The notes beneath the pieces are model-generated. The model did no database searches and was not told the DNA's origin. It saw only the letters and a list, made by a program, of their open reading frames with translations. Shown one piece after another: positions 11,125-63,697 of a stretch of 63,697 bases of DNA (its first letter is position 1; every line of letters begins with the position of its first letter). The position numbers and the translations under genes were made by a program. Origin of the DNA: Chara braunii (Eukaryota > Plantae > Charophyceae); NCBI GenBank assembly GCA_003427395.1, contig BFEA01000046.1, positions 719,499 to 783,195 on the forward strand. Reading direction: 5' to 3'.

Positions 11125-11876
11125 CCGCGGGCTGCCCCTCTTTTGGGGTTCCACCACGCGCCGCCCAGTCGAACAGGTCAGACCCCAGAATGATAAGTAA
11201 AGAGTCGGTCAGTCTAGACCACCAAGCTGCGCTCGGGGTTCGAAAATGAACCGTTAGCTACTCGCAGAACGACAAGAGGGGAAAATGAGTAAAGGAATCA
11301 GTAATAATAATAATAATAACAACAAAATAAGATAAGAAAAGAAATCATAACGCCGCCTCGGCCAGAGGTCACTAGATCGTCCCAAACAGAAGTGAGGGTC
11401 CAGATCTGTACGTAGATCTGACACTTGACTTCCTTTTTCTTTTTATCCCCATTTTCTTTTATTTTCCTTTCTTTCTTTCTTTACCCCTTTTCCATTCGAC
11501 TGTAAGAGCGGGTCAATGTACTTAACCCATAACCTGACAGAGGGGCACTCGGCGCGTAGTAGAAAAGACCACGCCGGTCTCTCTACTCTCGCGTCTCTGG
11601 GCGAGCCCGGCGGCTACCACGGCTACAGGCCGGTAGTGCTTTGCTGTACAGCAGGACGCCGAGTCTGCGTGGACCAAAGGAAAGTCCAGTGGCGCACCCC
11701 TTTTGTTGGGGAGGGCACCAACTGGACTTGTTCATAGTAGGGTACTATTCAGGTACACCAGGAGCGTCGCGTAGGCTTCGGGAGCAACCCAACGAGCCCC
11801 TGACGTTGAGCGAAAAGCAGTTACTGAGTAGGAATTTGGCACACAGAGGAGGGTCGGGACACCGCGCCCTCTTACA
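11125..11876 (-). repeat. 3' LTR of G1, first part
   Basis: Minus strand starts TGTAAGAGGGCGCGG; roughly 90% identical by eye to 31451-32204. Confidence 0.88.
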
Positions 11877-30710: not shown

Positions 30711-31142
30711 CTAGCGGTGCAGGTCCTTGTGTCGCTGAGCGTTCGTTTTTAAGCCCCTCTCTACAGACTCGGCGGACGGGTGATTCCATCGCCATTGGTC
30801 CAGTCCATGCCAGGACAGAGTCGTGGCATCCAAATCGCTCTCCTCGCTTTCGGCCTCAGTGTCGCGATCTAGGTGTCGTTCTTCCCGATCCACCGTGTCC
30901 GTGGATGTCCCTTCGTCCAGGTACACGACAGTCACCCTCATCTCGTCCGTGACCCCGTCTCGTCTGCACCTCCTTTCTGCTCGATCTTTTGCCATTGTGA
31001 TCGCCATCTGTAGGCCTGGGTCCGCCCTCATCTCCTCCTCTTTTCCCCCTTCTACATTTATCCTCAGCTTCATCTCCCCCCTGCCGTAACTGTAGTCCAG
31101 CACAACTGTCACCGTAGGCCCATCTCCCGACATCCGCTCCAA
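30711..31142 (-). pseudogene. Family-Z ORF in the G1 5' LTR (5'-truncated)
   Basis: RINVEGGKEEEMR...AKDRAERRCRRDGVT...LSWHGLDQWR. Confidence 0.72.
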
Positions 31143-32204
31143 TCGACGAGTTGAAACTCCAAGATTAATAAAATAAAATTAATTCGGATGGTTCTGAAAA
31201 AAACGAGGGACTGAACTCTGACAATCAGGGCCCAAGTAGAGCTTAGCGTGCTACTGCCAACTACCAGTTCTCGTGAAAGCACGTAAAGCGGCCACAAGTC
31301 CGACCCATCAGTCCCATAATGGGATACCGAGGGGCACCCTCGTTTCTTCTAAACACGCCACCGGGCTAACCTTCACGGGTACCCGTGTCCGATGGCAAGG
31401 AGGGGGCTTATGACCTTCCGAGGGAGGTGATAAGCCTCCTACCAATGCGGCCGCGGGCTGCCCCTCTTTTGGGGTTCCACCGAGCGCCACCCAGTCGAAC
31501 AGGTCAGATCCCATGACGGTAAGTAAAAAGTCGCCCAGTCTAGACCACCAGGCTGCGCTCGGGGTTCGAAAATGAACCGTTAGTTACTCGGAGAACGACA
31601 AGAGGGGGAAATCAGTAAAGGAATCAATAATAATAATGATAATAACAACAAAATAAGAAAAGAAAAGAAATCATAACGCTGCAGCGGCCAGAGGTCACTA
31701 GATCGTCCCAAACAGAAGTGAGGGTCCAGATCTGTACGTAGATCTGACACTCGACTTCCGTTTTCTTCTTATCCCCATTTTCTTTTCTTTTTCTTTCTTT
31801 CTTTCTTTACCCCCTTTTGCGTTTGACTGTAACAACGGATCCATGTACCTAACCCATAACTTGACAGAGGGGCACTTGACACGCAGTAGAAAAGACAGCG
31901 TCGGTCCCTGTACTCTCGCGTCCCTGGGCGAGCCCGGCGGCTACCACGGCTACAGACCGGTAGTGCTTTGTTGTACAGCAGGGCGCCTAGCCTGCGTGGA
32001 CCAAAGGAAAGTCCAGTGGCGCACCCCTTTTGCTAGGGAGGGCACCAACTGGACCTGTTCATAGTAGGGTACTATTCAGGTACACCAGGAGCGTCGCGTA
32101 GGCTTCGGGAACAACCCGACGAGCCTCTGATGTTTGAGCGAAAAGCGGTTACTGAGTAGGAGCCTGACACACAGAGGAGGGTTGGGACACCGCGCCCTCC
32201 GACA

Positions 32205-49316: not shown

Positions 49317-49919
49317 CCTGTGGCGCACTCAGCGCGAACGAACTGGGATAGTCCTCTGGATACTCCTGATCGGTATTAGTGGAATCTATGACCAACATCG
49401 GTGTGAGTGCGAGCGCGAGTGGGTTGTGTGTGGTGTGTGGGAGAGTGTTGGCCATAGCCACTGCTGCTACTCGATGAGGGGTGGGGGACGATGAGAAAGG
49501 GAGGCGCAGCTACTGGGAGGTCTCGGTCTTTGTGTTAGCCAGACCCCCACCGGCGGCCCCCTAAACATTAGGGGCAAGGGGCAACATGAAATCTCCCCTT
49601 CAATGTCCAAGAGGAAACTATGCTTGCAGGGGTTCCCTCTAGATAGCGTTAGGAGTAGGTAGTGAAAGGCAAAAACAGAAGTTGAGAGAAGAATATAGAA
49701 GAAAAAAAAAGAAATAAAGTGAAAACAAAAAGTAAAAAGTGAAAAAAGGCGAGCATGTTTTGACACCGCCACCTTTGGTGATTTTGATTCTTATGTGGCT
49801 GAGCCAAATGACGTCAAAATTTATAGGCATGTAACTCACAAAAAAAAAAAAAATCAGAAAAAGAAATATATTTTTAGTCCCCGAAATATTTTATTATTAT
49901 TATTATTATTTTTTATTAG

Positions 49920-49968
49920 AAATTCGGACCATTTCTCCATTTATGCATGTCATCCTTGTGCAGGGGCC

Positions 49969-50000
<32 letters not shown>

Positions 50001-50018
50001 ACGGATGTCCCGAAGGAC
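49920..50018 (-). ncRNA. U6: U6 snRNA full-length copy, probably a retroposed pseudogene
   Basis: GTCCTTCGGGACATCCGTTAAAATTGGAACGATACAGAGAAGATTAGCATGGCCCCTGCACAAGGATGACATGC...; A/AAT-rich tail; no recognisable upstream promoter. Confidence 0.93.
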
Positions 50019-50280
50019 CTGAAATAATTTTTGGCGGGGGATGAACGCCTTCAGGTTCGGACCTCGAACGGGAACCCGAACGCCTGTACGTGCAGAGGTC
50101 GGCCGGGGACCTCCGTACGTACAGGCTGGTGACCCTGACCATAATAGTGTAACACACCGATTTTAGGGAAAGTCAAATATGTAATATCGCTAATGCTCGG
50201 TAGTTATAGCTCTACGTGGAATGCAAATACTTGACAATTCTTTTTGCATTTGTGTTTTCTTTGTTTCTGTCGTCTTTTTG

Positions 50281-53200
50281 TACCGAGCGATGTATTCTTG
50301 AAGAAAATTGCTTACCTCGTCCGCCGTCTTTTTCTTAATGGCCTTAGCCTCTACGAATCCAGTGAGGTCATCGGGGGCGTTGATTATATACCTAAGCCCG
50401 CCTATCCCTTTCGACATAGTCACTAAGTCCACATGGACCTTCTCACCCAGAACGGTGGGAAGCGACTAGAGGCTCCTTGTATCGAACCGTCGCCCTTTTT
50501 TGGCAAGCCTCACACGTCGAGCAGTACTTCTCGACTTCCGTGTACTGCCCGTCCCACCAATAGAGCCTACGGACTTTGTCGAAGGTACCCTTTACCCCCC
50601 TATGGCCCCCGACGACCCCGTCGTGTAACTCTTTTATGACTGCCTTCCTCTCCTCCGGATCGCACAGTACCCTCACAGGAATCGCAAACTTGGTGGGTCT
50701 CTTAAAGAGATGGCCCCCTCGTAAGCAATTACCCAATGCTTTTTGCCGGATTCTCTCGGTCCCTGCTTCCCTACTGGCTAAATACAGTCCTATATTCCGG
50801 TACTTCCTGTCGTAAAGATTGGCGAGAAAGGTCCTCGGGGCCCCCTCCTCTTCCCGGCTGCTCCCTGCCAGTTGCGCCATATTAGCGGCGACCTTCATTA
50901 CCCCTTCTTTGGCCATCGTTGCTGCCTCCTCCTTAAGCCTCCGTAGGTCTTCCTCACAAATCGGAGCCGGGACAAACCGTCCGCCACCTGTTTTTTTGCC
51001 CCCGATACCCTTTCGACCCTATAATCGTATAGCCTAATATGTATCATCCATCGGGCGATGGTCGAGTCGGTCAGCGAGAAATCCTTTTGCAGGACCGCGG
51101 CCACTGCTGTTGGGTCCACCCTCATGAGAAATTGTCGCGCGTATATGTAATGGCGGAAGGCCTTTAGGCAATGCAGTACTCCCAACACTTCCTTTTTGAA
51201 CTGGCTATAATTCCGCTCGGCGGGGTTCAAGGTCCTACTCTCGAACTGCAACGGTCTCTCCTTCCCCTCTCCATCCTTTTGAGATAAGAGGCCCCCTACC
51301 GAGTAAGGCCCTGCGTTCATAAAAACTATGAACGGACGATGCTCTTCGTCCTCGAAGAACGGAACTCCTAGGATGTGCCCACCTTCGCGAAATTCCTCCT
51401 TTAGTGCTTCCATGGCCGCGGCCTGCTCCTCCCCCCAAATCCATCCTTCCGATTTCCTAAGCAGTCGTCTAAGGGGTTCTGCTTTCTCACCGTAGGCCTT
51501 TATAAAGATTCTCTAGTAGCCCACTACCCCTAGAAACTGCCTAACTTCTGTTATGGTCAGGTCATCAATTTCTCTAATTTCCTGGGATCGGGCCTCCGCC
51601 CATCCTTATCGCAGATGAAACCCAATATCTTGATGGACGACACGCCCCAACGACTCTTAGTTCCGCTCACCGTGAGATCAGCATCGTCCAACTTCACAAG
51701 GACATCCTTGACATCGCTCATGTGAACCGCTACAAACTTTCTCACCCCGGGAAAGACCTCCGTCTCATGTCGTTCAACCGGTCCTTTTATTGGGAAGTCA
51801 TCAAGAAGGACTTTCACTTTGTCAGGTATGAACTCCTTAAGGACCGCAATCATGGCCCCTTGGAACACCGCCGCGCCGTTTGTCCACCCCATCGGTACCA
51901 CCATCATTTGGACCAACGCTAGAGGCGTATGCATAGCGGTCATGTGCCTGCCTCGGTAGTCCAAGGGGATCTCATCATAGCCGGAGAAGAGATCGCAGAT
52001 TGAGTATATCGAGCGACCCGCCGATCCTTCCGCAAGTAAGTCTGCTTCAGGTATGGACCCCACGTCCCTTACAGTGACCGCGTTTGTGCTTTGGATGTTC
52101 TGAATCCACCTTAGTTTGTTGCTACCCCCCTTCCTCAGAAAGAACCATTTGTTGGAGTAGGCGCTTTCGCAAAGTTCCGCGACGAAAGTCCTGATTTTTT
52201 CCTTGATAAAGGTCACTATCTCCTCCTTCTCCTTTTGAGCATATTTCCACTGGGGTCTATCCTTCCAAGGCACGTGTGGAATCGTGTGGATTCGGGCCGG
52301 CTTAGCGTACCTTTGGTCGATTCTCCCTCTCTCCGAGTCATCGAAGGCCTTATCGCAGCCCCTTAGGGTCATAGCCACGTACTCCTTTTTTTCCTCCGTG
52401 AGATTCCCATCCCCTATATCCATCTTGGCCAACCTATCGGCCGTAATTCTTTGCCCCTCGGTCTCCTTCCTTTTTCGGATGATATCGGCGATCTCCTCCT
52501 CCGATATCGAAGTTTCCCCCGTTCTATCCCGGCTGACCGCGGCGGGTTTTAGTTTTTCCGCCACGGTTTTGTGCTTCTTGATTCCACCGGCTAGGGGGAT
52601 TCCTCCAAAAAAGACAGTCTCACACATCCACCGAACTCCTCCTCCTCGTCCTCCTTCTCATACCCTATCCCGTTGATCACAACTTTGCTCCCGATATCCT
52701 CGACCTCTAACTGGTCCCCCGGGGGTTCCTTATCCGTGTTCCTCTCATCTTGCGCGTCCACGGTCTTTAGGACCACCCAGATTCCGTCCGGACTTTGGAT
52801 TGAGAGGGTCTGACTCCCATCAGGCAAGTCAACAGTGGTAGCGTGAACCGCACTCAGCCAAGTCCTACCGAGGATCAACTCGGAGGAACACTCTTTCACC
52901 GAAATTATTGGGACTGAGCTTTCGATGCTTGCGACCTCTATCAAGGGGCTGTGACACACCCCTCAACTGGTTGAAGTTTGTTATCTGCCACGACCATCGA
53001 CATCGATATTTCCCTATCAATTTCCAAGCCCAGTTCCCGAGCGATGGAGTCCCTACATACCGTGGACTCGGACCCATTATCTACTAGAGCCCTCATCTTC
53101 TTCCCACTTACCACCGCTTGGAGTTGGCCGCTCCCTAATACATAGAACTTCTTGACTTCCTCCCCCGTGAAGAAATTAGCCGACAGTTCCTCCATGGTAA

Positions 53201-54900
53201 TTCGGGAGGACTGCACTCCTTCCTTGGGTGGACCATCTCGTGGTACCGTGGGTCCTCCGGCGAGCGGGATTCTTACTTTCCTTGTGATGCTTAAGAGTTA
53301 TTCCCTAGCGCTTTTGCTGGCCGCTAGGTATTCCAAAAGCGTGCACTGCGTAGGTTGAATCAAGGTTCTCCTAAGGGGGGCTACTGTGTCTACCTCATCC
53401 AAGGTACATTTCATTTCGAACTTTTTAGGCCCCCTCTTCTTAGGCGATTTGGGCGAAGTGGGCTCCTCCTTTTTTTCTTTTGCAACTTTGGCATTGGCCA
53501 TTAGTTGGTCGTTGTCGCCGCTCCTTCCTCCCGCATCTTCCGTCATGCTCTCTTGGCTTTTAGACGTCTCGGCCCCAACCTGTGTTCTCACCCTTAGGCA
53601 AGGCCTCTCTTCTTTAGGCTGGGTCTCAATGAACTTGATGAGGGACACCTGGGGTTCCCTAATGGATAGCCCCCCAGTTGACTCCGTCATTTGGATATGG
53701 GACGTGTTGGAGGTGCCCCCAATTTCAGGTTTCTTCCCCAGCCTCGCCTCCTGGAGGGCTATTCTCTTGTCCACATTCACCTTCATTGAGGGGTAGAAGG
53801 AGACCGCCTCTCCCCCATCCCCCCACACAACCCACTTGTTTTCATTTAGTTTTACCACCCCCAACCTTAAGGCCTCCGTGAGGTGAGGATAGTCCCTTTT
53901 GATGTGACTTTCCTCATTGCAGTAAACACACCCGCTTCGAGCTTGCGGGTTGTTGGGGCGCGGACCCCCTTGCGTCACTGCGGCAACAGGCACAGGAGGA
54001 GCCGGCGGCGGCGGCGCAGGCGGCGGAGCCCTGACCTCAGGTCGCGCTCTAGTGACTCTTACCTGAGGCGTGTCTCCCCACCTGCCATCCCTAGCGTCCT
54101 TCCAATGAGAATTCCCCCAATCAGGGCCTCGGTTTCCTCCTATCTCTCGGTCATTTCTCGAGCCTCCTTGGTTTTCTGGCTCGCTTCTCCATCCTGCTTG
54201 CCGTTCTCCCCATCGTGGACCAGGTGGACCAGGTGGACCAGGGGGTGGCCTGTCATTCCCCCTTGGGGCATCATTTCGTGTGTTGCGCATACTATGGAGC
54301 GCCATGTCCAGAGTTTCTTTCATGTATTCTCTCACGTCCACTCCTCCCCCGGTGCAGACCGCCTCCGTGACCTTTTCGAAATTGGTCGAGTCCCTTGGGG
54401 CCTTTTCAAGAACCTCCTTCCTCTTCTGCTCTGGTAGATGTAGCATAAACATTACGCACCTATCCACCTCCGACAACATCCCTCTATCTACTAGGGCTTG
54501 GGACAAGCGCTTGAACCGGCGGGTGAAGGCCACCAAGGTCTCCCGTTCCCCCCTCGCAACACGCCGCAAATCCTCCACCGTGGGGATCAAATCATCACAC
54601 GCGAAAGTCCGCAGTAGACTACTTTTGAACGTCCTCCACCGCCCATCCGTGTGGTAGATAGCCCTTATCGCAGGGTCCAATTCTGGGTCCGAGTGCTGGA
54701 TGAAGTGATCTATCGGATTCTATCCATTCTTTTTCGGAGAATCTCTTTCGGTAAGCATAACTTTCCCATTTCTCGACGAACCCCGTCACATTACGCCCGT
54801 CGAAGAAAAGTGCCTCTAGGCCTAGGTTGACGTCATAATAGGGGATTCGTCGGTCGTCGTATCGGCGGAAATAGGGCCCCTCCATAGCCCCGTCAATCAC
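50281..54900 (-). pseudogene. G2 gag-pol, frameshifted
   Basis: Gag 53298-54900 with CVYCNEESHIKRDY; PR RALVDNGSE; RT DLFSGY...PMGWTN...LLDD; RH ERPLQFESRTL; INT HDGVVGGH...CSTCEAC; INT core stops at EYIARY. Confidence 0.94.
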
Positions 54901-55159
54901 CGGGTCGTACGGCTTGTACCAAGAGGGATCCGACTCCTCAATCCGGGGTCAGGGTCTCGGCGGCCCCCAAGACTCTTCCCCGTACCGCCCTCTCTCATTT
55001 GGCCATTCCGTCTCCCAACATGCGGGTTCCAGACCCCTAAATGCTCTCCAGGCGTCCACCCCCGGACTTCTCCCCATTGCCTCTCCGGGAGCCTATGCGG
55101 CATCCGACTCCCTCTCGGCCCATCTCCTTGGTCTGCCGCTAGCTCCCGCCGACCTCTCA

Positions 55160-55700
55160 TCTCTTAGGTCCCTTCTATTCAGACCCCCTTCTTCTTCTCT
55201 CCTAGGCGGTCGTACCCTCGCCTATCTCTCGAAAACTCTAGTGCCTCCCCCATCCTTGCGTCCACTAGATCTGCCCATCGAGTTTCTACCGGAAGGCCCC
55301 TCGAGGCTTCAGCCACCCCCTCTCTCACCGGCACTTGCAGCTCTACCTCCCTATGCACTCGCACCTTCGTGCCAGCTCTTTGTTCCACCAAAGCTTGTCT
55401 CTCACCGGAGGCAGTTTCGGGCGCCCTTTCGGCCCACCTTCATGGTCGACTACCAGCTTCCGCCGCCCTCTCAGCTCTCAGGTCCCTTTTATCCTGGTCC
55501 CCTTCTTCTTCTCCCCTGGGCGGCCGATACCCTGACCTCTCTCTCGGGAATTCTGAAGCTTCTCCTACCCTCGCTTCGGCGTCCACTAGATCCGCCCACC
55601 GGGATTCTACTGGAAGGCCCCTTGAGGCTTCGGCCGCCCCCTCTCTCACTGGCACCCGTGGCTCTACCTCCGTATGCACTTGTACTTCCGAGCTAGCTCT
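55160..55700. repeat. Diverged tandem duplication just upstream of G2 gag
   Basis: EVELQVPVREGVAEASRGLPVETRWADLVDA vs EVEPRVPVREGAAEASRGLPVESRWADLVDA. Confidence 0.8.
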
Positions 55701-55913
55701 TTGACCCTCCAAGATTTGCCTTTCCCCTGAAGCCGTCTCTGGGCTCCTCTCGGCCTTGCCTATCGACTCGGTACCCTCGGTCATTTCTTCCGTCACCCTA
55801 CTTAGCCTAGCTCCTAACTCGGGGCTCTTCTCAACGCCCTATCTTAGTGCCGTTTCCGGTGGACGAGAGAGTCCTGCCTCCACCTCACTCTCCATGCACC
55901 CTATCGTTATCCT

Positions 55914-58900
55914 CTAGTCGCTCTCCTCGCTATCGTCACCTTCTTCCGAATTGTCTTCTTCCCCTGAGTCTCCCTTCCCCTCACTTGATTCCTGGATCTC
56001 ACTATCTTCTTTCGACTCCTCGCTGGTCACAGTCCACCAAACGTCCCTTACTCGCTTTTCTTCACTGGCTGCTAAGGCTAAGTTGGCGACTTCTAGGTCA
56101 GAAATCCCCCTCACCCCCTCTTGAGAGCACCGCCTGATCAGGTCCCTATCCACCTCTCCGGGTTGTCCTCCAAACAGGGGTTTGATGAATTCCCCAATTC
56201 GTGCCCACCACTCGAAGTCACTGTCCTCTCTCGATTCCCAACACTGGGTGAACAGTTTGTGCCCCCCTTCTTCGCCTAATGGGAATTTCTCTATCACCTT
56301 TCCCCTATTTCGGACCCTCCTCATGGTTGCATCGTCGGCGTGGAGTAGTCGGTAAGCCCAGGTTGGGATCTCCCAAGTTTTCCCGTGAGCCGCCCTTGGA
56401 ACTTCCGACCTTTCTCGGTGTTCCACTCTATCAACCACGCGTCCCTCGGCGCCGCACCCTCTCAATCTCCTTAGTCGGTCTAGGGCCTTTCGGGCGATGT
56501 CTAAGGGGTCCTTCCCTTCTGCTATTTCCGTCGCGAAGAAGCGTCAGTCGTCGGGAGACAGGAAGATCTCAGCCTTCCTAGTGCGGTTTCCACCTTTGGA
56601 GACCACCGAGAACCTCACTACCGTCTCTTGCCCGTAGATCTCGAAGAACTCAGTAGACACCACTCCTTCCCCTCTAACCCTAGGGAGGGTTACTCCATAC
56701 CTCTTTCCCGATTTCCAAGCTCTTTTTGAGGTACCAACAGGGTCCTCCCTGTCGTATCTAATCATCGGGGGCCTCACCTCATGCCTTCCAACCTCGCGGC
56801 GGCCTCTACCAGCGAGTCCTCACACCTAATGCGACCGATTTCTCCTTCCTCGCTCAGCGTGTGGTGCAAGGCCCCTTCGTACTCTCCCGTCCTATCCCAA
56901 AATCGAGTCTCTACAAGGTGTATCCTAGATGCAAGCGGGATTCCTAGATACTTAGCATCCTCTTCGAACCTTCTCTCCACTTCCAGCAGCGGCTCTCTCC
57001 AAGTCCTCTGGACCCTCCCTCCACTTGCACCTCTAATGTGGACCGAAAAGCTAGCTAGTGTGGTCCAGAACCTCCTTTTCCATAAGGCCAGCCGCCGCAC
57101 CTCCAGTAGAAATTCCTTCTCGGCACGGATCACTCGATCCTCTCCCAGCTCCGGGTTAAGTTTTGCACTTCCCTCGACCGTAATTTCGTTACCGTCCTCG
57201 CATGTCTCTAATTCCCAACGAATCCTATTGGAGACGAACGAAGCTCTCATAACCTCTCCTCACCGCGCGAGAAGATCTATCGTTAACTCATCGAGGATCG
57301 CGATCGCAGTTGTCTCCAGTAGCTTGATCCTAGCCAAGGACCCAAGCTTTGCCCTCCTTTCTTCCTCCCAACATAGAGTGAGGATCAGAGAACTTCTTCT
57401 CTTACCCTCTCCAACCCCACAAGCTCGCCAAGGTCAGGCTCGCTCATCCCCCAATTTCAGTCGACGACACGCAATCGCTATCCGAATTAGATCCGAGGGG
57501 TCCAATCCCGCTAACTCCCCTTCGTAGATCTTACCCAAGTATCTCCATGATATCTTCGATTCCCTCGCGTATCGACCCCACCCTTCAAAGGCGTAACCCA
57601 GCTCCTCTAGAGTCGACCAATTGTCTCTATAAGGATCCAGGAAACACCACGTTAGTAAGGTATGGAGGTCCCATCCCGTAAACCGGAACTGGCTTAGGAT
57701 GGAAATCCTTCTTTCTACCGCCCTCTTGACTGCCTCGGAGGGGTAGATCCGTTCAAAGATGAAACGGGGAACTCCCACCGGCTCACTAGAGATGAACCGA
57801 GGTATCTCCTCCCACCCCCCGTAGGTCACTCGATATTCTTCGTCGCACCCTTCGCGAGGCCTTACCTCCTCTACTAACTCTTCTAGTCGGTCTCTCACGG
57901 CTTGCGCGTCCCAAAGAGGGTCTTGCCCAGTCCGCAAGCTGCGCGCTATCTCTACAAGGCCCTCCTTCGAAAGGAATATTCGGGCCTTTCCAACTACTAC
58001 CCTCCCCTCGCTACACACCGCTAATCGCACGAACGCCTTCCCGCGCCGGATTTCCCCTTCTTCTCGCTGGAGGGTCCTAGTTGGTTTCGCCAATCTGGCT
58101 CTAGGTAGAGTGACACGGACAACTTCTCCGATGTCTTCAATCGGTTCTACTGACGCCCATAGAGTTCTCGGGATCCCCCTTATCATCGGCCTTTGAACCC
58201 CCGACGGTTCGCCACCGGTTCTTCCCCGAAGAAGCGGGCGTACAGGACGTCCGCTACTTTAGCTCTGATCTCCTCAAAATCTCTCAACCTCCCGAATATC
58301 ATAGACAATTCTCCTCTTGGAGGAACCCCCGTGTCCACGCACCGCGTATAGAGCCAGAACAAACCTCTAGCCCGCACCCCGGATTCTCGAGCCGCTCTAA
58401 GTACCGCTACCACTTTCTCCTCCGGGTCCCTTAAGAATGAATTGGTCAAGAACTAGGGTAGGTTCGCCTGGAGGACCCCAGACGCACGAGGGACTTCCCC
58501 AGGCTCGACGAAGGACACTAGAGTCCACGACTCGAAAGTCCCTTCCTCGTAATCAGCCAGCACCAAGTTATTTGCTACCAGCCTCGCGGATTCCTGGTAT
58601 TCCGTATGGGTCACTTGCGCAGTTACTAAGTCCCTCCACACTTCGGTCCACGCTTCCTCGTTGAGGAAAACCGTAGCCTGAATTTCTAGGAAACGACCGA
58701 GATCAGGCGACCCTCCTCTCTGCACTCCTTTCCAGGTGAGCCTGCGAGCTCGAACCCATACGTACGCACCTCCCCGGATGACCTCGCCTTTCTCAACGCT
58801 CATCCAGTAGGGCGTCACTCTCTGGTCCCCTGGAACCAAGACCTTCCCATTCTCACTGGCCTCTATCGATTCTACCACCCCGTTCTCGGTGAGCACGAAC

Positions 58901-61100
58901 CTCACCATCTACCGACGCCGTTCTAAAGACCCACTGGCGATACTTTTCGGGAGAGAGAGTGAAGGGTTTCTCCATGGACCCCAATCTCCTAAAAATACCC
59001 CAAAGCTTCCTGTATGGAGGGATACCCTGATCGATGCAATGCGTGTACAGCGTCCACAGGCCTCCAAAGGTTAACCCCAAACTCCTTCCCCTCTCTAGAA
59101 GCCTCACTATCTTTCCTTCGATCTTTCCTTGGAACAGGAAAGACGGCACCCTCATGGTTAATAGATAGCACGCCCTTGGAAGCTCCCCTTCCCCCGCGAA
59201 CCTCTCCCTCTCTACAGCCACAAACATAAGTTGCTCCCGAACCCTACTTATCCATTCCCCTTGCACTTCCCTCGCCTCTCGCAACAACTTACCCAGCCCA
59301 CCCCCTTGTCCTAGGACCAGGGGTACTACGACTTTCGCCCAAGCCTCCGGGCCAACGAAGATAACTGCGGCCACCTCCAGACTCCTCTCAACCCCTCAAC
59401 TCTCAACCTCTTTGGACTCTATCCACACGAACTCCCCACTGACCGTGGGCCTTCCCCCTTCTATCCTCCCCCAATCGGGCATACCCCCGTTCCTAGGGAT
59501 TAACCTACAGGTCTCACAGCCTTCTATGAAGGATTCGACGAAGCGTCCCGGTTCCTTATCATGGAACACCATTCACTCTAAAACATTTTTTGGGACACTC
59601 CGAGGAGCCTTTGGTAACCGTAATCTCGTCCGCCCTGGTGGTCCCGAGCTGACTCCCTAATGATCCCCGCGCGAATCCTACACGCTTTGATTCCTTACGG
59701 TACAGGGTTCTCCACGCAGTAGGTGTAGTACCAATGGAGCGACCTAACAGATAGCTGCTACCCTCTCTTCCGTACTTTGGATCGCACAACCTTCTCGTAC
59801 CGCTCCTCCTTCCCGCTCACCCTCCGGAAAACGAAAGACGGGAATACGGCCTGTATGCACCCTGTGGCACGAGGGTATTCCTCGTCTCGAGCGCAAGTCA
59901 CCCTCACCTCGATTAGTGGGCAGTAGCGAAGGGGCTCCGCCTCAAAAATCTGCCTCAAAATCGGACCCGCTCGAGTTTCCCAATGATGCGCACGGTACCA
60001 ACCTAGGACCAAGTGAGTGACGTAATCTACCCAAGCCTCCCTACTCAGATAGAATGTTCCTTCCGCACGGATCACCGTTCATCCAGGCCTCTTCCCGCTC
60101 GGGGGCCCGTTCTGGTACCACCTGTCCCCTTCCCAAGTTCCTACCGCGAATCGAGTCCAAAGGAAAACCCCCTCCTCTAGTTCTAACCCTCTCTCGCGAC
60201 CGGCCAGATACCTCTCGGTGCGATGGTCTAGGGGGACGCTAAAGCACTCCCTGTCCTTGCTTAAATCTGCTCTCTCTATTCGTACCCCCTCCTCTTCAGT
60301 ACCTTCTACGATCCTAACCATCCCCTTGGACTATCTCCTCTATGATTTGAACCAGCGCTCTCCACCCGTCCGAACCGTCAAGGAAGGCTTCCGGAATAGT
60401 AGGAATAGGCCTCTCCCCTCGCAAATACGTCCGATACCCCAACGAGTAGAAGTAATTAATCTCGTAGGCCCCAAGCAGTTCCCTCTCGAGCCGCGAGTGG
60501 CCGACCGCCTCCTCCCAGCTATCTAAAAAACCTGCCTCTCTATCTGCACCTTTTTCCACGTACAAAGCTATGTCGAAGTCGCCAGTCCACTAGTAGAAAT
60601 TGTAGCACCACACGTCCATCCCGTCTTGACTACCCACACTAATCCCCGAAGGTTCAAACTCCAGAGCCCTCAGACTCATGGATTGACCGTTCTCACTACT
60701 CTCTCCACGATCCCTATTAGCACTTTCCAATCGTCCGACCCGTCGAGATAAGCGTCCGGGATTACCGGCGCCGGACGACCACCCCTGGGGTAGGTTTGGT
60801 AACCTAAGGAGAAAAAGTACTTAAACCCGTAACTCCTTAACTCCCCCCTTGAACCACGAGAGTGGCCTATCGCCTCTTCCCATCCACAAAGGAAATCCTC
60901 CCCTTGATCTAGCCCTTCCTCTACGTAGACACCCACATCAAAGTCACCCGTCCATAGTCGAAAAGTGTCTTTGATCAAAAGGAATCTGTAAGTTCCACTA
61001 CCTTTTGGCCACTCGAGAGACCACCTCTAACCCGCAAGGAGAAGATGCCTGTGAGCTCAGAAGGATCAAATGGACCAGAGAAGGAACGCTGTCTCACTCA
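55914..61100 (-). pseudogene. G2 pre-gag polycistronic accessory ORF array (about 8 cistrons: 2 domain-X, about 5 family-Y, 1 other)
   Basis: Reconstructed cistrons: ~61100-60676, 60679-60314, 60321-~59560, 59572-58853, 58908-58183, 58186-57434, 57250-56774, 56765-55914. ATGA overlaps at 60676-60679 and 58183-58186. Confidence 0.8.
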
Positions 61101-62073
61101 ACTACATTCCTGTCCTCCCCCGCCGAGAGACCCCTTCCCACTCCCGGTATAGAGACTAGCTGCGGACACAGGTTATCCCTGAGGAAAGGTGGCAACCCCC
61201 TCCCCGGAGTCGGACCGAAGTCACACACCCAGGTCCTATGTCCCCCACTGAACCGACCCCTAGTCCTAAGCTAACCTATCCGGTACCACGCCTCTACTCG
61301 GCCTACCTCAAGCGTGGAATTACCCGGGTCCCAGGTCTTGATCCACCTATCGATCGAAGATCACTAGCCTATCTACTCCCTCCCATTCTCCTTATCATGA
61401 ACTCTTCGAACTTCGTTCCCTTCTTCCTTTTCCGCCTTCGGCTGCCTCTTTTCTCTCTTGGAATCACTAGAATTCAAATCGGGGAGTCTGAAAAGGAGGG
61501 GAGGGAAAAACCGAGATTTAGGAAGAGTCTCTCAGGTTGGGCAAATATACTTTCGCACCTTGTGGTCTTCGGTTCCTTCAATATTCGTTCTCGTAGTCCC
61601 AATAGTCCCCTAGATCCGAGTCCGAGAAATCGGCAAGGCACCGGTCCACCCAAGACCCGTCCTCTAATCCCTCATCCAAGGTACCCCACGTATCTCTCAC
61701 CTCTCCTCCCTGGGGCAGTCCCCTCTCCCCCTCACTCACAACGGTGGTTGTATTTCCCTCGCTCCCTTGGCCCGGAACTCGAAGCACCACTCTCCTCACC
61801 CCCAAGCCCCGAACGGTCCCCGCTTGAGAACCCCCCTCCCAAATGGGAGGCGTCTCTCTCGTGGGTCCCGTACACAATCCCTGCGGGTCGAGAATCGAAA
61901 ATCCAAACCCTTCCCGCGGAATCCTTTCTGGTGTGGGAGCAGCCCCTCGGGCGGGCGCCCTCCACAGCCCGTGTGGGTCAAGGATGTTAGGCGACCCCCT
62001 TGGGTCCCAAATAGATAATGCCCCCGGACCCTCTCGGACCCCTCTCTCCTCTCTTCCCCTCGCTCCCACTCTC

Positions 62074-62303
62074 NNNNNNNNNNNNNNNNNNNNNNNNNNN
62101 NNNNNNNNNNNNNNNNNNNNNNNNNNNNNNNNNNNNNNNNNNNNNNNNNNNNNNNNNNNNNNNNNNNNNNNNNNNNNNNNNNNNNNNNNNNNNNNNNNNN
62201 NNNNNNNNNNNNNNNNNNNNNNNNNNNNNNNNNNNNNNNNNNNNNNNNNNNNNNNNNNNNNNNNNNNNNNNNNNNNNNNNNNNNNNNNNNNNNNNNNNNN
62301 NNN
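62074..62303. other. Assembly gap (N run)
   Basis: 230 N; the same ~35-nt sequence lies on both flanks. Confidence 0.99.
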
Positions 62304-62881
62304 CCCCTCTCTCCTCTCTTCCCCTCGCTCCCACTCTCTCTCCCCCATGAGCGGATCCCTTTACACTATTTTCCCGAACGGTTCTTCTTCCCACCCCCTC
62401 GTTGTTCTTCACCCTCATTCAGACCTCTCAAGCAAACTGTGCACCCCTCTTAATTTTTTTTTGATTTTAAGAAATAAACATGCGTAAAAAAAACAAGAAC
62501 TCACGCCAAAAAGGAAACTGACTTGTTTACCCTTCGCAGGCCGAGAGCGGGAGCCGGAGTCGCAAGCAGGCCGGAGCGGACCTGCAAAATCCAAGAAAAA
62601 TGCCCCGACACCCCAACTCCCCCGCACCCAAACAGCCCCAACAACCCTTCCCAAAAAAAAAACGCGCCAGGTAGGACCCCCACCGCTGCTGCCCAAGTGG
62701 AAAAGATACAAAAAAAAGGTGCTGCACGAACCAAAGAAAATCGCAGCCGAGTCGAAGAAAGCCGATAGGGGATGCCGAAGTCCGAAGAAGTTGAAGTCGA
62801 AACCCCCTCGCCACTGCCTGTTAGCCGATCCTCCCTTACCCCTCAGTCACTGAGCCGGCCGAGGCAGCAGGAGAAACGCCC

Positions 62882-62900
62882 ATCCCCGGCAACGACGCCA
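62882..62900 (-). promoter_or_regulatory. Primer-binding site (tRNA-Asp type) of G2
   Basis: TGGCGTCGTTGCCGGGGAT, 3 nt after ...CCGGGCA. Confidence 0.88.
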
Positions 62901-63294
62901 CTTTGCCCGGCAGGTCGGAACTCCCCACGGCTCGTCTAGCCGGTCAGGTATTCTCAGCTGTCGGTAGGACGGTCGCCCTGCCTCAAGTCAATCCGTCGCA
63001 GAGAGGGCTCGACTACCCTGACTTCCCCTGAATTACCCCTCCCTTCTTCCCGTACTATCGCCAGGGGGGGACACGCGCCCGCGGAGGTTCCCTGCGAGTT
63101 TCCGTGACACCCAAAAAAAAACCGATCTCAAGTGCCTTTCCGGAAGTCAAATCTTGAGCGTGGACCAGCTCGACCCGGACTGTAGCGGGATGCGAGCTCA
63201 AAGGACGAACGGATCGCTGTTTGGGCGAGCTCGACCCGAACTGTAGTCAAAGTTACGACGCTGGATACAAGCGAGCCTGGCCCAACCGTAACAG

Positions 63295-63697
63295 AACTAA
63301 AATACAGAAAACGAACTGCCTTTACCCAACTCTTTTTCGGGATTCAGATTAGAGGTGCCAGCAAGCCTGACACAACTGTAGCAGAAACAAAAATACAGAA
63401 AATAAACAGCCTGCTCCCAAACTCTCCTTCGAGAATCAGATTCGAGGTCCGAGCGAGCTCGGCACGACTGTGGCAGGACAGAAATACAGAAAACGAATAG
63501 CCTGTACCCAACTCTTTTTCGGGACTCAGATTCGAGGTGCCAGCAAGCCAGACACAACTGCAGCAGAAATAAAAATACAGAAAATGAACAGCCTGTTCCC
63601 GGACTCTCCTTCGAGATTCAGAATCGAGGTGCGAGCGAGCTCGGTGCAACTGTGGTAGGACAAAAATACAGAAAACGAATAGCCTGTACCCAACTCT
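63295..63697. repeat. ~91-bp tandem repeat with alternating A/B units in the presumed G2 LTR
   Basis: AAATACAGAAA at 63301, 63391, 63482, 63573 and 63664. Confidence 0.88.

Follow-up and report, generated by a model that had tools for sequence, protein, structure and literature searches.

A eukaryotic message generally yields a single protein, rarely two or three, and the locus described here raises the question of how eight or nine small reading frames lying ahead of gag could be expressed from one mobile element. The window (the whole stretch analysed, 63,697 nt of Chara braunii contig BFEA01000046.1) holds on its minus strand, on which all features below lie, a Ty3/Gypsy element whose reverse transcriptase (RT) has relatives of up to 85% identity in Chara braunii; of the 12 matches listed in the RT search, 11 are from Chara and the remaining one is fungal (32%). 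The Pfam domains follow in the order gag, then protease (PR), RT, RNase H and integrase. The gag-protease region (52591..55895; Asp_protease_2 E 4.5e-6, Retrotrans_gag E 0.004, the latter below its own cut-off) is decayed here and collinear with the gene models P0024 and P0017, and the RT-RNase H-integrase region (50250..52627; RVT_1 E 3e-11, RT_RNaseH E 2e-24, Integrase_H2C2 E 6e-20) is likewise decayed. Integrase ends near 50270, and it is because of this 3' truncation that the window contains no second LTR. The candidate 5' LTR (62904..63109, about 205 nt with TG...CA ends), recognised from its sequence, is followed 3 nt past its end by a PBS-like 18-mer (62883..62900), which we take to be of the tRNA-Asp type, and then by a long AUG-poor leader (61030..62882), which includes 230 N of assembly gap and a putative intron from a donor near 62504 to an acceptor at 61488.

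Leader and gag are separated by an array of 5.1 kb, made up of nine tracks (A1, A2, Y1-3, Z1, G, B and Z2) and ending 18 nt short of gag. The initial annotation had counted about eight packed sense cistrons between the PBS and gag; the tight packing and the order stand, the count was probably too low, G making nine, and the PBS-like site (62900-62883) precedes the array by about 1.85 kb. Our verdict is a new architecture within a known element class, and the evidence supports an array that is real, conserved, multi-cistron and part of the element. We found no published description of it, which the Chara genome paper or its supplements may nevertheless mention.

The array opens with A1 (60676..61026), 116 open codons with no start codon found in the studied copy, and with its paralog A2 (60314..60679), 121 codons with one in-frame stop at 60590. 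Near 60965-61005, in A1, contigs of other copies omit 34-40 nt that the studied copy has. The next three tracks are Y1 (59559..60321), with two in-frame stops, Y2 (58853..59572), 239 codons with one stop at 59396, and Y3 (58183..58908), 241 codons with one stop at 58453. Both Y1 stops (~60079-60081 and ~59758-59759) read differently in 91-100% of the depth of other copies, and its true stop would require the tail to shift frame near 59700, a change that does not figure in the indel table. Z1 (57434..58186; 250 codons) and B (56774..57250; 158 codons, without a paralog) are intact, and Z2 (55914..56765; 283 codons, one stop at 56544, an acidic tail) is the last cistron, the gag ATG following 18 nt further on in the same frame. 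A gap of about 180 nt had been described at 57250-57434; it is probably filled by a ninth small ORF, G (57260..57447, about 62 codons). This putative ORF has its ATG at 57447, in a 14-nt overlap with the Z1 stop, and a frame that closes at a TGA at 57260, 9 nt before B; its two halves lie in different frames near 57387, where the length differs by one base in other copies (84/261 and 47/201 of depth).

The junctions described in the initial annotation are exact in the sequence: ATGA at 60676-60679 and 58183-58186, where A2 and Z1 start, overlaps of 8 nt (60314-60321), 14 nt (59559-59572) and 56 nt (58853-58908), and an 8-nt gap (56774/56765). So are the stops said to split one frame each (60079, 58453 and 56544), to which we add further in-frame stops at 60590, 59758 and 59396. 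The 14-nt Y1/Y2 overlap, present as such, depends as a junction on the inferred frame change in the Y1 tail. Junctions between tracks are overlaps of 4-56 nt or gaps of 8-9 nt, and all nine, gag included, lie within 56 nt, AUGA occurring at two. A crude, post hoc estimate puts the chance of 8/8 array junctions this tight at 1e-5.6 to 1e-10.3.

Most tracks have a paralog within the array. The paralogy noticed earlier within family Y agrees with blastp among ten tracks, which pairs Y2 with Y3 (32%, E 1e-20), Y1 with Y3 (28%, E 4e-9), Z1 with Z2 (29%, E 6e-11) and A1 with A2 (56%, E 4e-35); the Y and Z proteins group into a single family of five (HH probability 95%), whose alignment is very diverse. 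No track had a Pfam match, no array protein one in PHROGs, and the Y/Z profile none among PDB sequences. In the ESM Atlas Z1 reached at best 0.86, which is lead level only, with no functional match for it or for B, and no near-length homolog of Z1 was present among 1661 candidates. Viral contigs gave no match to Z1, RT or A2, and prokaryote genomes none to Z2. Y3 searched against 1.84 billion representatives returned three matches: two are copies of the family, and the third, an FG-GAP repeat protein, we take as spurious. Structure models are of low confidence (pLDDT 36 for Z1 from a single sequence, 54 for Y3 from 13 sequences), and searches with that of Y3 in PDB Foldseek, VIA-wide and BFVD brought nothing significant, the best VIA-wide score being a Z of 5.7 on generic helices; its beta-beta-beta-alpha core seems to us to resemble PC4/PUR/Whirly proteins, which were not among the fold-search matches of this pLDDT 54 model. 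Hydropathy over 19 residues peaks at 0.4-1.0 in seven tracks and at 1.77 in Y2. An env-like accessory gene, expected to follow pol and to have a transmembrane segment, was rejected on these values and on the array's place before gag. Most likely the array encodes soluble accessory factors multiplied by tandem duplication, and we would guess at a role such as handling element RNA or countering host silencing.

Other copies bear on whether these frames are genes and whether they belong to the element. Y2, Y3 and A1/A2 are under purifying selection: against L001, a copy 76% identical, dN/dS is 0.17 for Y2 and 0.11 for Y3, with 1.3-2.2 in wrong-frame controls, and over 88 codons A1 and A2 differ 27/26/53 times by codon position (pS 0.77, pN 0.28). 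B recurs at 72% identity in P0024 and in P0025. As for the stops, the comparison across copies that the initial annotation had proposed shows most internal ones to be decay private to the studied copy, frame offsets and several starts being common to copies: the position is open in 2/2 gene models and in L001 for Y2 and in 6/6 copies for Z2, and is a sense codon in L001 for Y3. Among the 66 best-supported copy differences none hits an initiator or terminal stop, which carries little weight as less than one would be expected by chance.

That the junctions are decay frameshifts of one former polyprotein might be suggested by the stops and frame changes that the studied copy carries in both the array and gag-pol, and this reading is now largely refuted, with next to no probability left. 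L001 keeps the Y2/Y3 frame offset and the stop that ends Y2; the start methionine is kept in P0024 for Y2, in P0025 for B and in 3/3 covering copies for Z2; Z1 and Z2 each have VTLPR at residue 25, so that the paralog starts are in register; and no indel is tabulated at six overlap junctions or at B/Z2, in tables that undercount indels. The two outcomes named beforehand as fatal, a fused polyprotein and unconserved overlaps, thus did not come true, offsets being shared and the internal stops examined mostly private. We hold very improbable an origin of the array as a separate element or captured viral block, brought next to gag-pol by nested insertion. Such an origin would suit array proteins unlike anything in retroelements, a segment (61010-61350) that contigs cover some 4-5 times as deeply as the array, and the 3/11 Z2-bearing gene models with no gag/pol of the element's family behind Z2. 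However, the DNA contig depth over the array is similar to that over the gag start, divergent contigs span the end of Z2 and the start of gag, and the other 8/11 Z2 models, on scaffolds of different length, continue from Z2 into the element's own gag/PR/RT family; the order in P0024 is Y2, B, Z2, gag, PR. LTR-like and PBS-like sites moreover lie upstream of the array, and no terminal repeats surround it.

A property of the array absent from the initial annotation is its loss of AUGs, which affects all frames and the sense strand only. Its sense strand has 36 ATGs against 56.2 +/- 5.3 in dinucleotide shuffles (0/300 as low), and neither the antisense strand nor gag-pol is depleted. Internal methionines make up 9/1594 codons (0.56%) in the array versus 33/1393 (2.37%) in gag-pol (Fisher p 3e-5), and 5/2864 versus 190/7984 residues in gene models of other copies, which are related and mostly cover Z2. 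Out-of-frame ATGs number 19 in the array, against 39.9 +/- 5.2 by codon shuffling (0/1000) and 29.3 +/- 4.4 by synonymous resampling (11/1000); gag-pol has 42 with 41.1 expected. Six of the 66 best-supported differences remove an ATG unique to the studied copy and none adds one. The depletion extends through Z2, the last ORF ahead of gag, with ATG density at 1-9 per 800 nt and rising to 14-17 per 800 nt at the gag capsid region. The nine initiators themselves are in one strong, five moderate and three weak contexts. The internal ATGs at 59255 and 58803 are kept in L001.

By analogy, this AUG desert is the signature of leaky scanning of the badnavirus type. Our main reading, to which we give a probability of about 60%, is that the locus is a decayed copy of a Chara Ty3/Gypsy element whose family shares an array of eight or nine small genes kept by purifying selection, which are likely translated serially by scanning past weak starts and likely also by stop/start restarting. 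A capped, LTR-driven RNA, perhaps without the leader intron, would be scanned through the array, each of the nine initiators capturing part of the ribosomes; AUG avoidance inside Z2 would benefit gag, the sole ORF behind it, and restarting at the stop/start overlaps would probably add to scanning. Against scanning, few ribosomes would reach gag, a product needed in large amounts, after nine AUGs in a row over 5 kb. Leftover ATGs (28 non-initiator ones in the array of the studied copy, seven in strong context, and the two internal ones kept in L001), the loss of the Y3 ATG in L001, the sole further copy seen at that place, and A1 without a start also speak against it, as does a viral precedent described for two ORFs over about 900 nt. 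A bolder version, which we advance tentatively and think doubtful, is a ten-cistron operon-like RNA, scanned and restarted through nine genes, about 5 kb in all, before gag is reached, with one of the Y/Z, A or B proteins serving as its own reinitiation activator; if true, it would be a scanned polycistron far longer than the described two- and three-ORF cases and bring a new protein family with it.

The initial annotation supposed that gag can be reached only through coupled translation or splicing, a reasonable supposition. Two other routes to gag compete with scanning. The more plausible, still rather unlikely, is that gag and some internal cistrons come from spliced or internally initiated sub-genomic RNAs in the style of complex retroviruses, scanning being limited to short runs of ORFs; the high demand for gag would fit this. 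Splice signals in the leader are good (acceptors at 61488, with pyrimidines at 15/15 positions, and 62582; donor at 62504), and P0004, a gene model from a different scaffold, has ahead of Z2 and RT a piece that matches 62582-62511 (E 7e-4). The automated models P0004, P0024 and P0025 also join to a common acceptor near 56150 inside Z2, after which the first AUG is that of gag. But these models are predictions, the 15 best acceptor sites include no pyrimidine-rich one just before gag or near 56150, and splicing leaves the AUG loss throughout Z2 and the array unaccounted for. Three RNA runs, of which 6-13% was sampled, gave 4, 0 and 100 reads on the element, and no read was 99% alike to the studied copy; the 100 split 53/47 by mate in both orientations, which makes strand and DNA carry-over ambiguous, and contain no splice joint over 60290-61400, a weak test. 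Improbable in our estimation is a mechanism resting mainly on termination-reinitiation after long ORFs, through an element-encoded activator like the TAV of CaMV or a non-TURBS RNA signal. All nine junctions lie within 56 nt and two are AUGA, tight ORF packing also marks reinitiating caulimovirids as described in PMC5902531, and pneumoviruses are reported to reinitiate as far as 29 nt before a stop without TURBS (PMC3542737). Yet pure reinitiation would require no AUG depletion within ORFs, and the array proteins showed no similarity to known activators in Pfam, sequence and fold searches. The AUGA overlap is shared with calicivirus and influenza B termination-reinitiation as set out in PMC3542737; unlike there, TURBS motif 1 is missing at all nine junctions, UGGGA occurring 40-90 nt upstream of the stop at 0/9 and being absent up to 100 nt upstream of all nine stops, though the array holds 2.9 per kb. 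Because AUGA is found at only 2/9 junctions, UGGGA is absent over those 100 nt and AUG depletion is strong, the evidence points more to AUG-avoidance scanning of the badnavirus type than to termination-reinitiation of the calicivirus type.

For AUG-avoidance scanning, the pregenomic RNA of Badnavirus/Tungrovirus is, by analogy, the closest working model. ORFs I and II of RTBV and badnaviruses are described as free of internal AUGs and passed by scanning (PMC5902531), and the likeness to that account extends to small fused or briefly overlapping ORFs ahead of the capsid/RT ORF and to suboptimal starts, 8/9 initiators here being moderate or weak behind AUG-depleted upstream ORFs. The differences from the same account are that the Chara element is an integrase-bearing LTR element, with about 5 kb and nine ORFs instead of about 0.9 kb and two, and that the one segment tested (61010-61400) has no special, stable leader fold (z 0.01). 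There is also none after a putative slippery site (z -0.46). Membership of Caulimoviridae was rejected, an integrase domain being present and no movement-protein family matching. Green-algal nuclear leaky-scanning polycistrons (PMC11291117; PMC7896298) share, as reported, the green-lineage nucleus and the ATG depletion ahead of the downstream ORF, described for bicistrons ahead of ORF2 (PMC11291117); those are mostly two or three cellular chlorophyte genes, whereas here a charophyte mobile element would carry up to ten cistrons before pol.

Among plant elements, Ogre is described with a 550-codon 5' extra ORF (PMC1142308), or with one or two extra ORFs (PMC6431247), and Retrosat2, RIRE3 and RIRE8 with an ORF0 before gag (PMC3485330). 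The array resembles these, as so described, in being sense-strand extra coding of unassigned function between LTR/PBS and gag under purifying selection, and departs from them in its eight to nine small ORFs against one or two, its tandem paralogy, stop/start packing and AUG depletion, as well as in the short LTR candidate and the lack of a plant mobile domain or aRH match. Assignment to Ogre was rejected, a single large eORF, often with PF10536, being unmatched by many small ORFs with no Pfam match. The same holds for the Tat clade (Ogre, Retand), for which an additional archaeal-type RNase H is described (PMC6317226): no second RNase H family was found in the window pieces or in P0018, P0024 and P0015 (E up to 1). 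For comparison with Athila the 3' end is missing, and no land-plant protein is among the 12 RT matches listed.

With eight to nine AUG-purged genes before gag, the element offers nine natural junctions at which to probe the limits of scanning and reinitiation in a plant-lineage cell, possible parts for multi-gene expression, and three or four protein families without known relatives. The main plant LTR survey, as its methods are described, counted extra ORFs only at at least 250 codons (PMC6317226), and Chara gene models falsely fuse the array ORFs by splicing; because of that minimum and these fusions, surveys can miss such arrays.

The stretch ahead of gag in the minus-strand Ty3/Gypsy element (55914-61026) holds nine small ORF tracks, named A1, A2, Y1, Y2, Y3, Z1, G, B and Z2 from 5' to 3'. 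We consider it highly probable (about 0.9) that this accessory gene array is real, conserved and under selection, and it bears a signature of scanning. The junctions, internal stops and paralog motifs named in the initial annotation are all present. Its "about 8 cistrons" captured a tight array that is real but consists of nine tracks, the ninth (G) likely occupying what had been described as a ~180-nt gap (57250-57434). Successive ORFs overlap by 4, 8, 14, 56, 4 and 14 nt and are then separated by 9 and 8 nt, and the gag ATG (55895) lies 18 nt beyond the array end. In this copy A1 has no ATG, and other copies of the family differ over 34-40 nt of its 5' part; the frame of G is interrupted near 57387, a point at which some other copies are one base longer or shorter; and the tail of Y1 requires a frame change near 59700 that is absent from the indel table.

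Between gag and the leader, contigs from two DNA runs (~4900 each) leave none of the 30 bins uncovered, and their summed depth across the array is ~450-2000, against 8-15 for single contigs, a depth that does not equal copy number. The leader segment 61010-61350 has a contig depth ~4-5 times that of the array and the highest number of RNA reads; it may be common to related or non-autonomous families. Searching longer proteins with Z2 gave 11 matches among 2738 candidates, all of them Chara gene models, which, being automated, serve solely for linkage and the presence of Met. In eight of the 11, Z2 is joined to the gag, protease or RT of this family, and model P0024 has the order Y2, B, Z2, gag, protease, as in the window; in the other three Z2 is terminal and has no such link. 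We give very little credence to the array being a nested capture. Comparison among copies had been proposed as a check on whether internal stops vanish and junctions persist. The stops of Y1, Y2, Y3 and Z2 are indeed mostly open elsewhere: 91-100% of contig depth reads otherwise at the Y1 stops 60081 and 59759, the internal stop positions of Z2 and Y2 are open in 6/6 and 2/2 models, and both in-frame stops of Y2 and Y3 are sense codons in L001, a 1261-nt copy (76% identical) bearing stops of its own. The A2 stop 60590 falls outside the 40 of 176 difference rows shown. Persistence of the junctions held in part: L001 aligns over Y2/Y3 with one 3-nt indel and retains the stop that ends Y2, and covering models retain the start Met of Z2 (3/3), Y2 (1/1) and B (1/1), but L001 lacks the Y3 ATG. 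The contig indel tables, which undercount indels, list none at overlap junctions; that the junctions arose by decay of a polyprotein is extremely improbable.

Direct selection estimates cover Y2, Y3 and A1/A2. Compared with L001, Y2 has a dN/dS of 0.17 over 189 codons and Y3 one of 0.11 over 206, with wrong-frame controls at 1.3-2.2, and A1 versus A2 gives pS 0.77 and pN 0.28 over 88 codons. A profile of the Y proteins matches one of the Z proteins with 95% probability (E 4e-8), against ≤0.2% for reversed or unrelated controls, so Y1-3 and Z1-2, five of the nine genes, constitute one family, sharing the motifs IFL, E-x-P-R and L-x-T-x-C. The array proteins had no family, sequence or fold match (Pfam for all tracks; fold for a low-confidence Y3 model), and Y2 alone among the tracks has a borderline hydrophobic stretch.

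The sense strand of the array contains 36 ATGs versus 56.2 +/- 5.3 expected (0/300 shuffles that low), and the same test found no deficit in its antisense strand or in gag-pol. Met is also rarer inside the array ORFs, at 9 of 1594 codons, than in gag-pol, where it takes 33 of 1393 (p 3e-5). Out-of-frame ATGs number 19, against 39.9 expected from codon shuffling (0/1000 as low) and 29.3 from synonymous resampling (11/1000 as low), with 42 versus 41.1 expected in gag-pol. In other copies, which are related, mostly Z2 and non-independent, Met accounts for 5 of 2864 array residues versus 190 of 7984 in gag-pol. Across 66 difference rows, six ATGs are private to this copy and none to others (antisense, two and none); since CpG decay creates ATGs, this copy likely overstates the family count. 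The contexts of the nine starts are strong in one case, moderate in five and weak in three. The most depleted sense-strand trinucleotide (55914-61030, minus) is CAG (45 versus 68.5 expected), barely rarer than in gag-pol (8.8 versus 10.8 per kb); selection against 3' splice sites may lie behind this depletion.

On how gag is reached, we lean towards ribosomes scanning a single LTR-driven RNA past the array starts, a route we infer and which restarting at tight stop/start junctions would likely assist. Scanning is favoured because AUG loss inside Z2 can benefit only gag, the ORF behind, and because AUG-free upstream ORFs have precedents. In RTBV and badnaviruses the capsid/RT ORF is reached by leaky scanning past AUG-free ORFs that have suboptimal starts and are fused to or briefly overlap their neighbours, much like the array (PMC5902531), and green-algal bicistrons with an AUG-free upstream ORF, also read by leaky scanning, resemble it in AUG depletion ahead of the downstream ORF (PMC11291117). 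Against scanning, nine starts in succession would starve gag, and 28 non-initiator ATGs persist in this copy's array, two of them retained in L001.

Splicing or internal starts could produce gag instead, an unlikely though not negligible route: three gene models have in common an acceptor near 56150, and in an RNA spliced there the gag AUG would come first, but the site is purine-rich. RNA reads over 54500-62060 numbered 4 and 0 in two runs; a third gave 100 over 60290-61400, all from other copies and in both orientations, with no splice joints listed among them. Translation dominated by reinitiation is less likely still. The AUGA junctions that had suggested virus-like termination-reinitiation are in the sequence, but the TURBS motif UGGGA occurs at 0/9 junctions: the 100 nt preceding each of the nine starts and nine stops are free of it.

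Domain order (protease, RT, RNase H and integrase zinc finger, 53.3-50.4 kb, minus; Pfam) fits Ty3/Gypsy, with a gag match below cut-off. By Pfam the element has no second RNase H family and no single large 5' eORF, as sought for Tat/Ogre; it bears an integrase and has no movement protein match, which sets it apart from caulimovirids; and its array precedes gag rather than following pol as env-like genes would. The claim that plant Gypsy elements have at most one 5' extra ORF was right that few are known, but up to two are known (PMC1142308, PMC3485330 and, for two, PMC6431247), versus nine tracks here. The available part of review PMC7264820 describes no such array, and the survey PMC6317226 tallied only ORFs of at least 250 codons. 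No published description was found in literature coverage that excludes the Chara genome paper and its supplements, and within that coverage the array is an unreported form of a known element class.

The element's 5' end is likely marked by a TG...CA stretch (candidate 5' LTR, 63109-62904, minus) and, downstream, a PBS-like 18-mer (62900-62883, minus), presumably of tRNA-Asp type. The gag N-terminal region (55103-55755, minus) contains an internal repeat of ~320 nt (76-79% identity). The gag-protease frame stops at TAG 52591 (minus), as in models P0024 and P0025, and RT sits in a different frame; an ATG in the RT frame (52627) and, near 52613, a T-rich heptamer resembling a slippery site overlap the gag-protease end (52591-52627, minus). 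No stable fold was found downstream of the heptamer. RT may be reached by -1 frameshifting, by reinitiation or through an Ogre-like intron. Of the 12 proteins listed in an RT search, 11 are gene models of Chara braunii, at 59-85% identity, which makes this alga or a near relative the likely host. The twelfth, the nearest non-Chara match, is fungal (Grifola frondosa, 32%), and no land-plant protein is among them; the RT lineage may lie outside current plant Gypsy clades. This copy ends near 50270, where the integrase is interrupted. About 250 nt further on the same strand lies a full-length U6 snRNA match (49918-50018, minus; Rfam 98.9 bits) with an A-rich tail behind it, which may have arisen by retroposition of U6 or belong to a SINE derived from it. 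Two different tandem arrays, each with a unit of ~91 nt, occupy the window ends (63270-63697 and 55-1715), and another repeat has three copies (2170-2935, 11125-11876 and 31141-32204) and related inverted ones.
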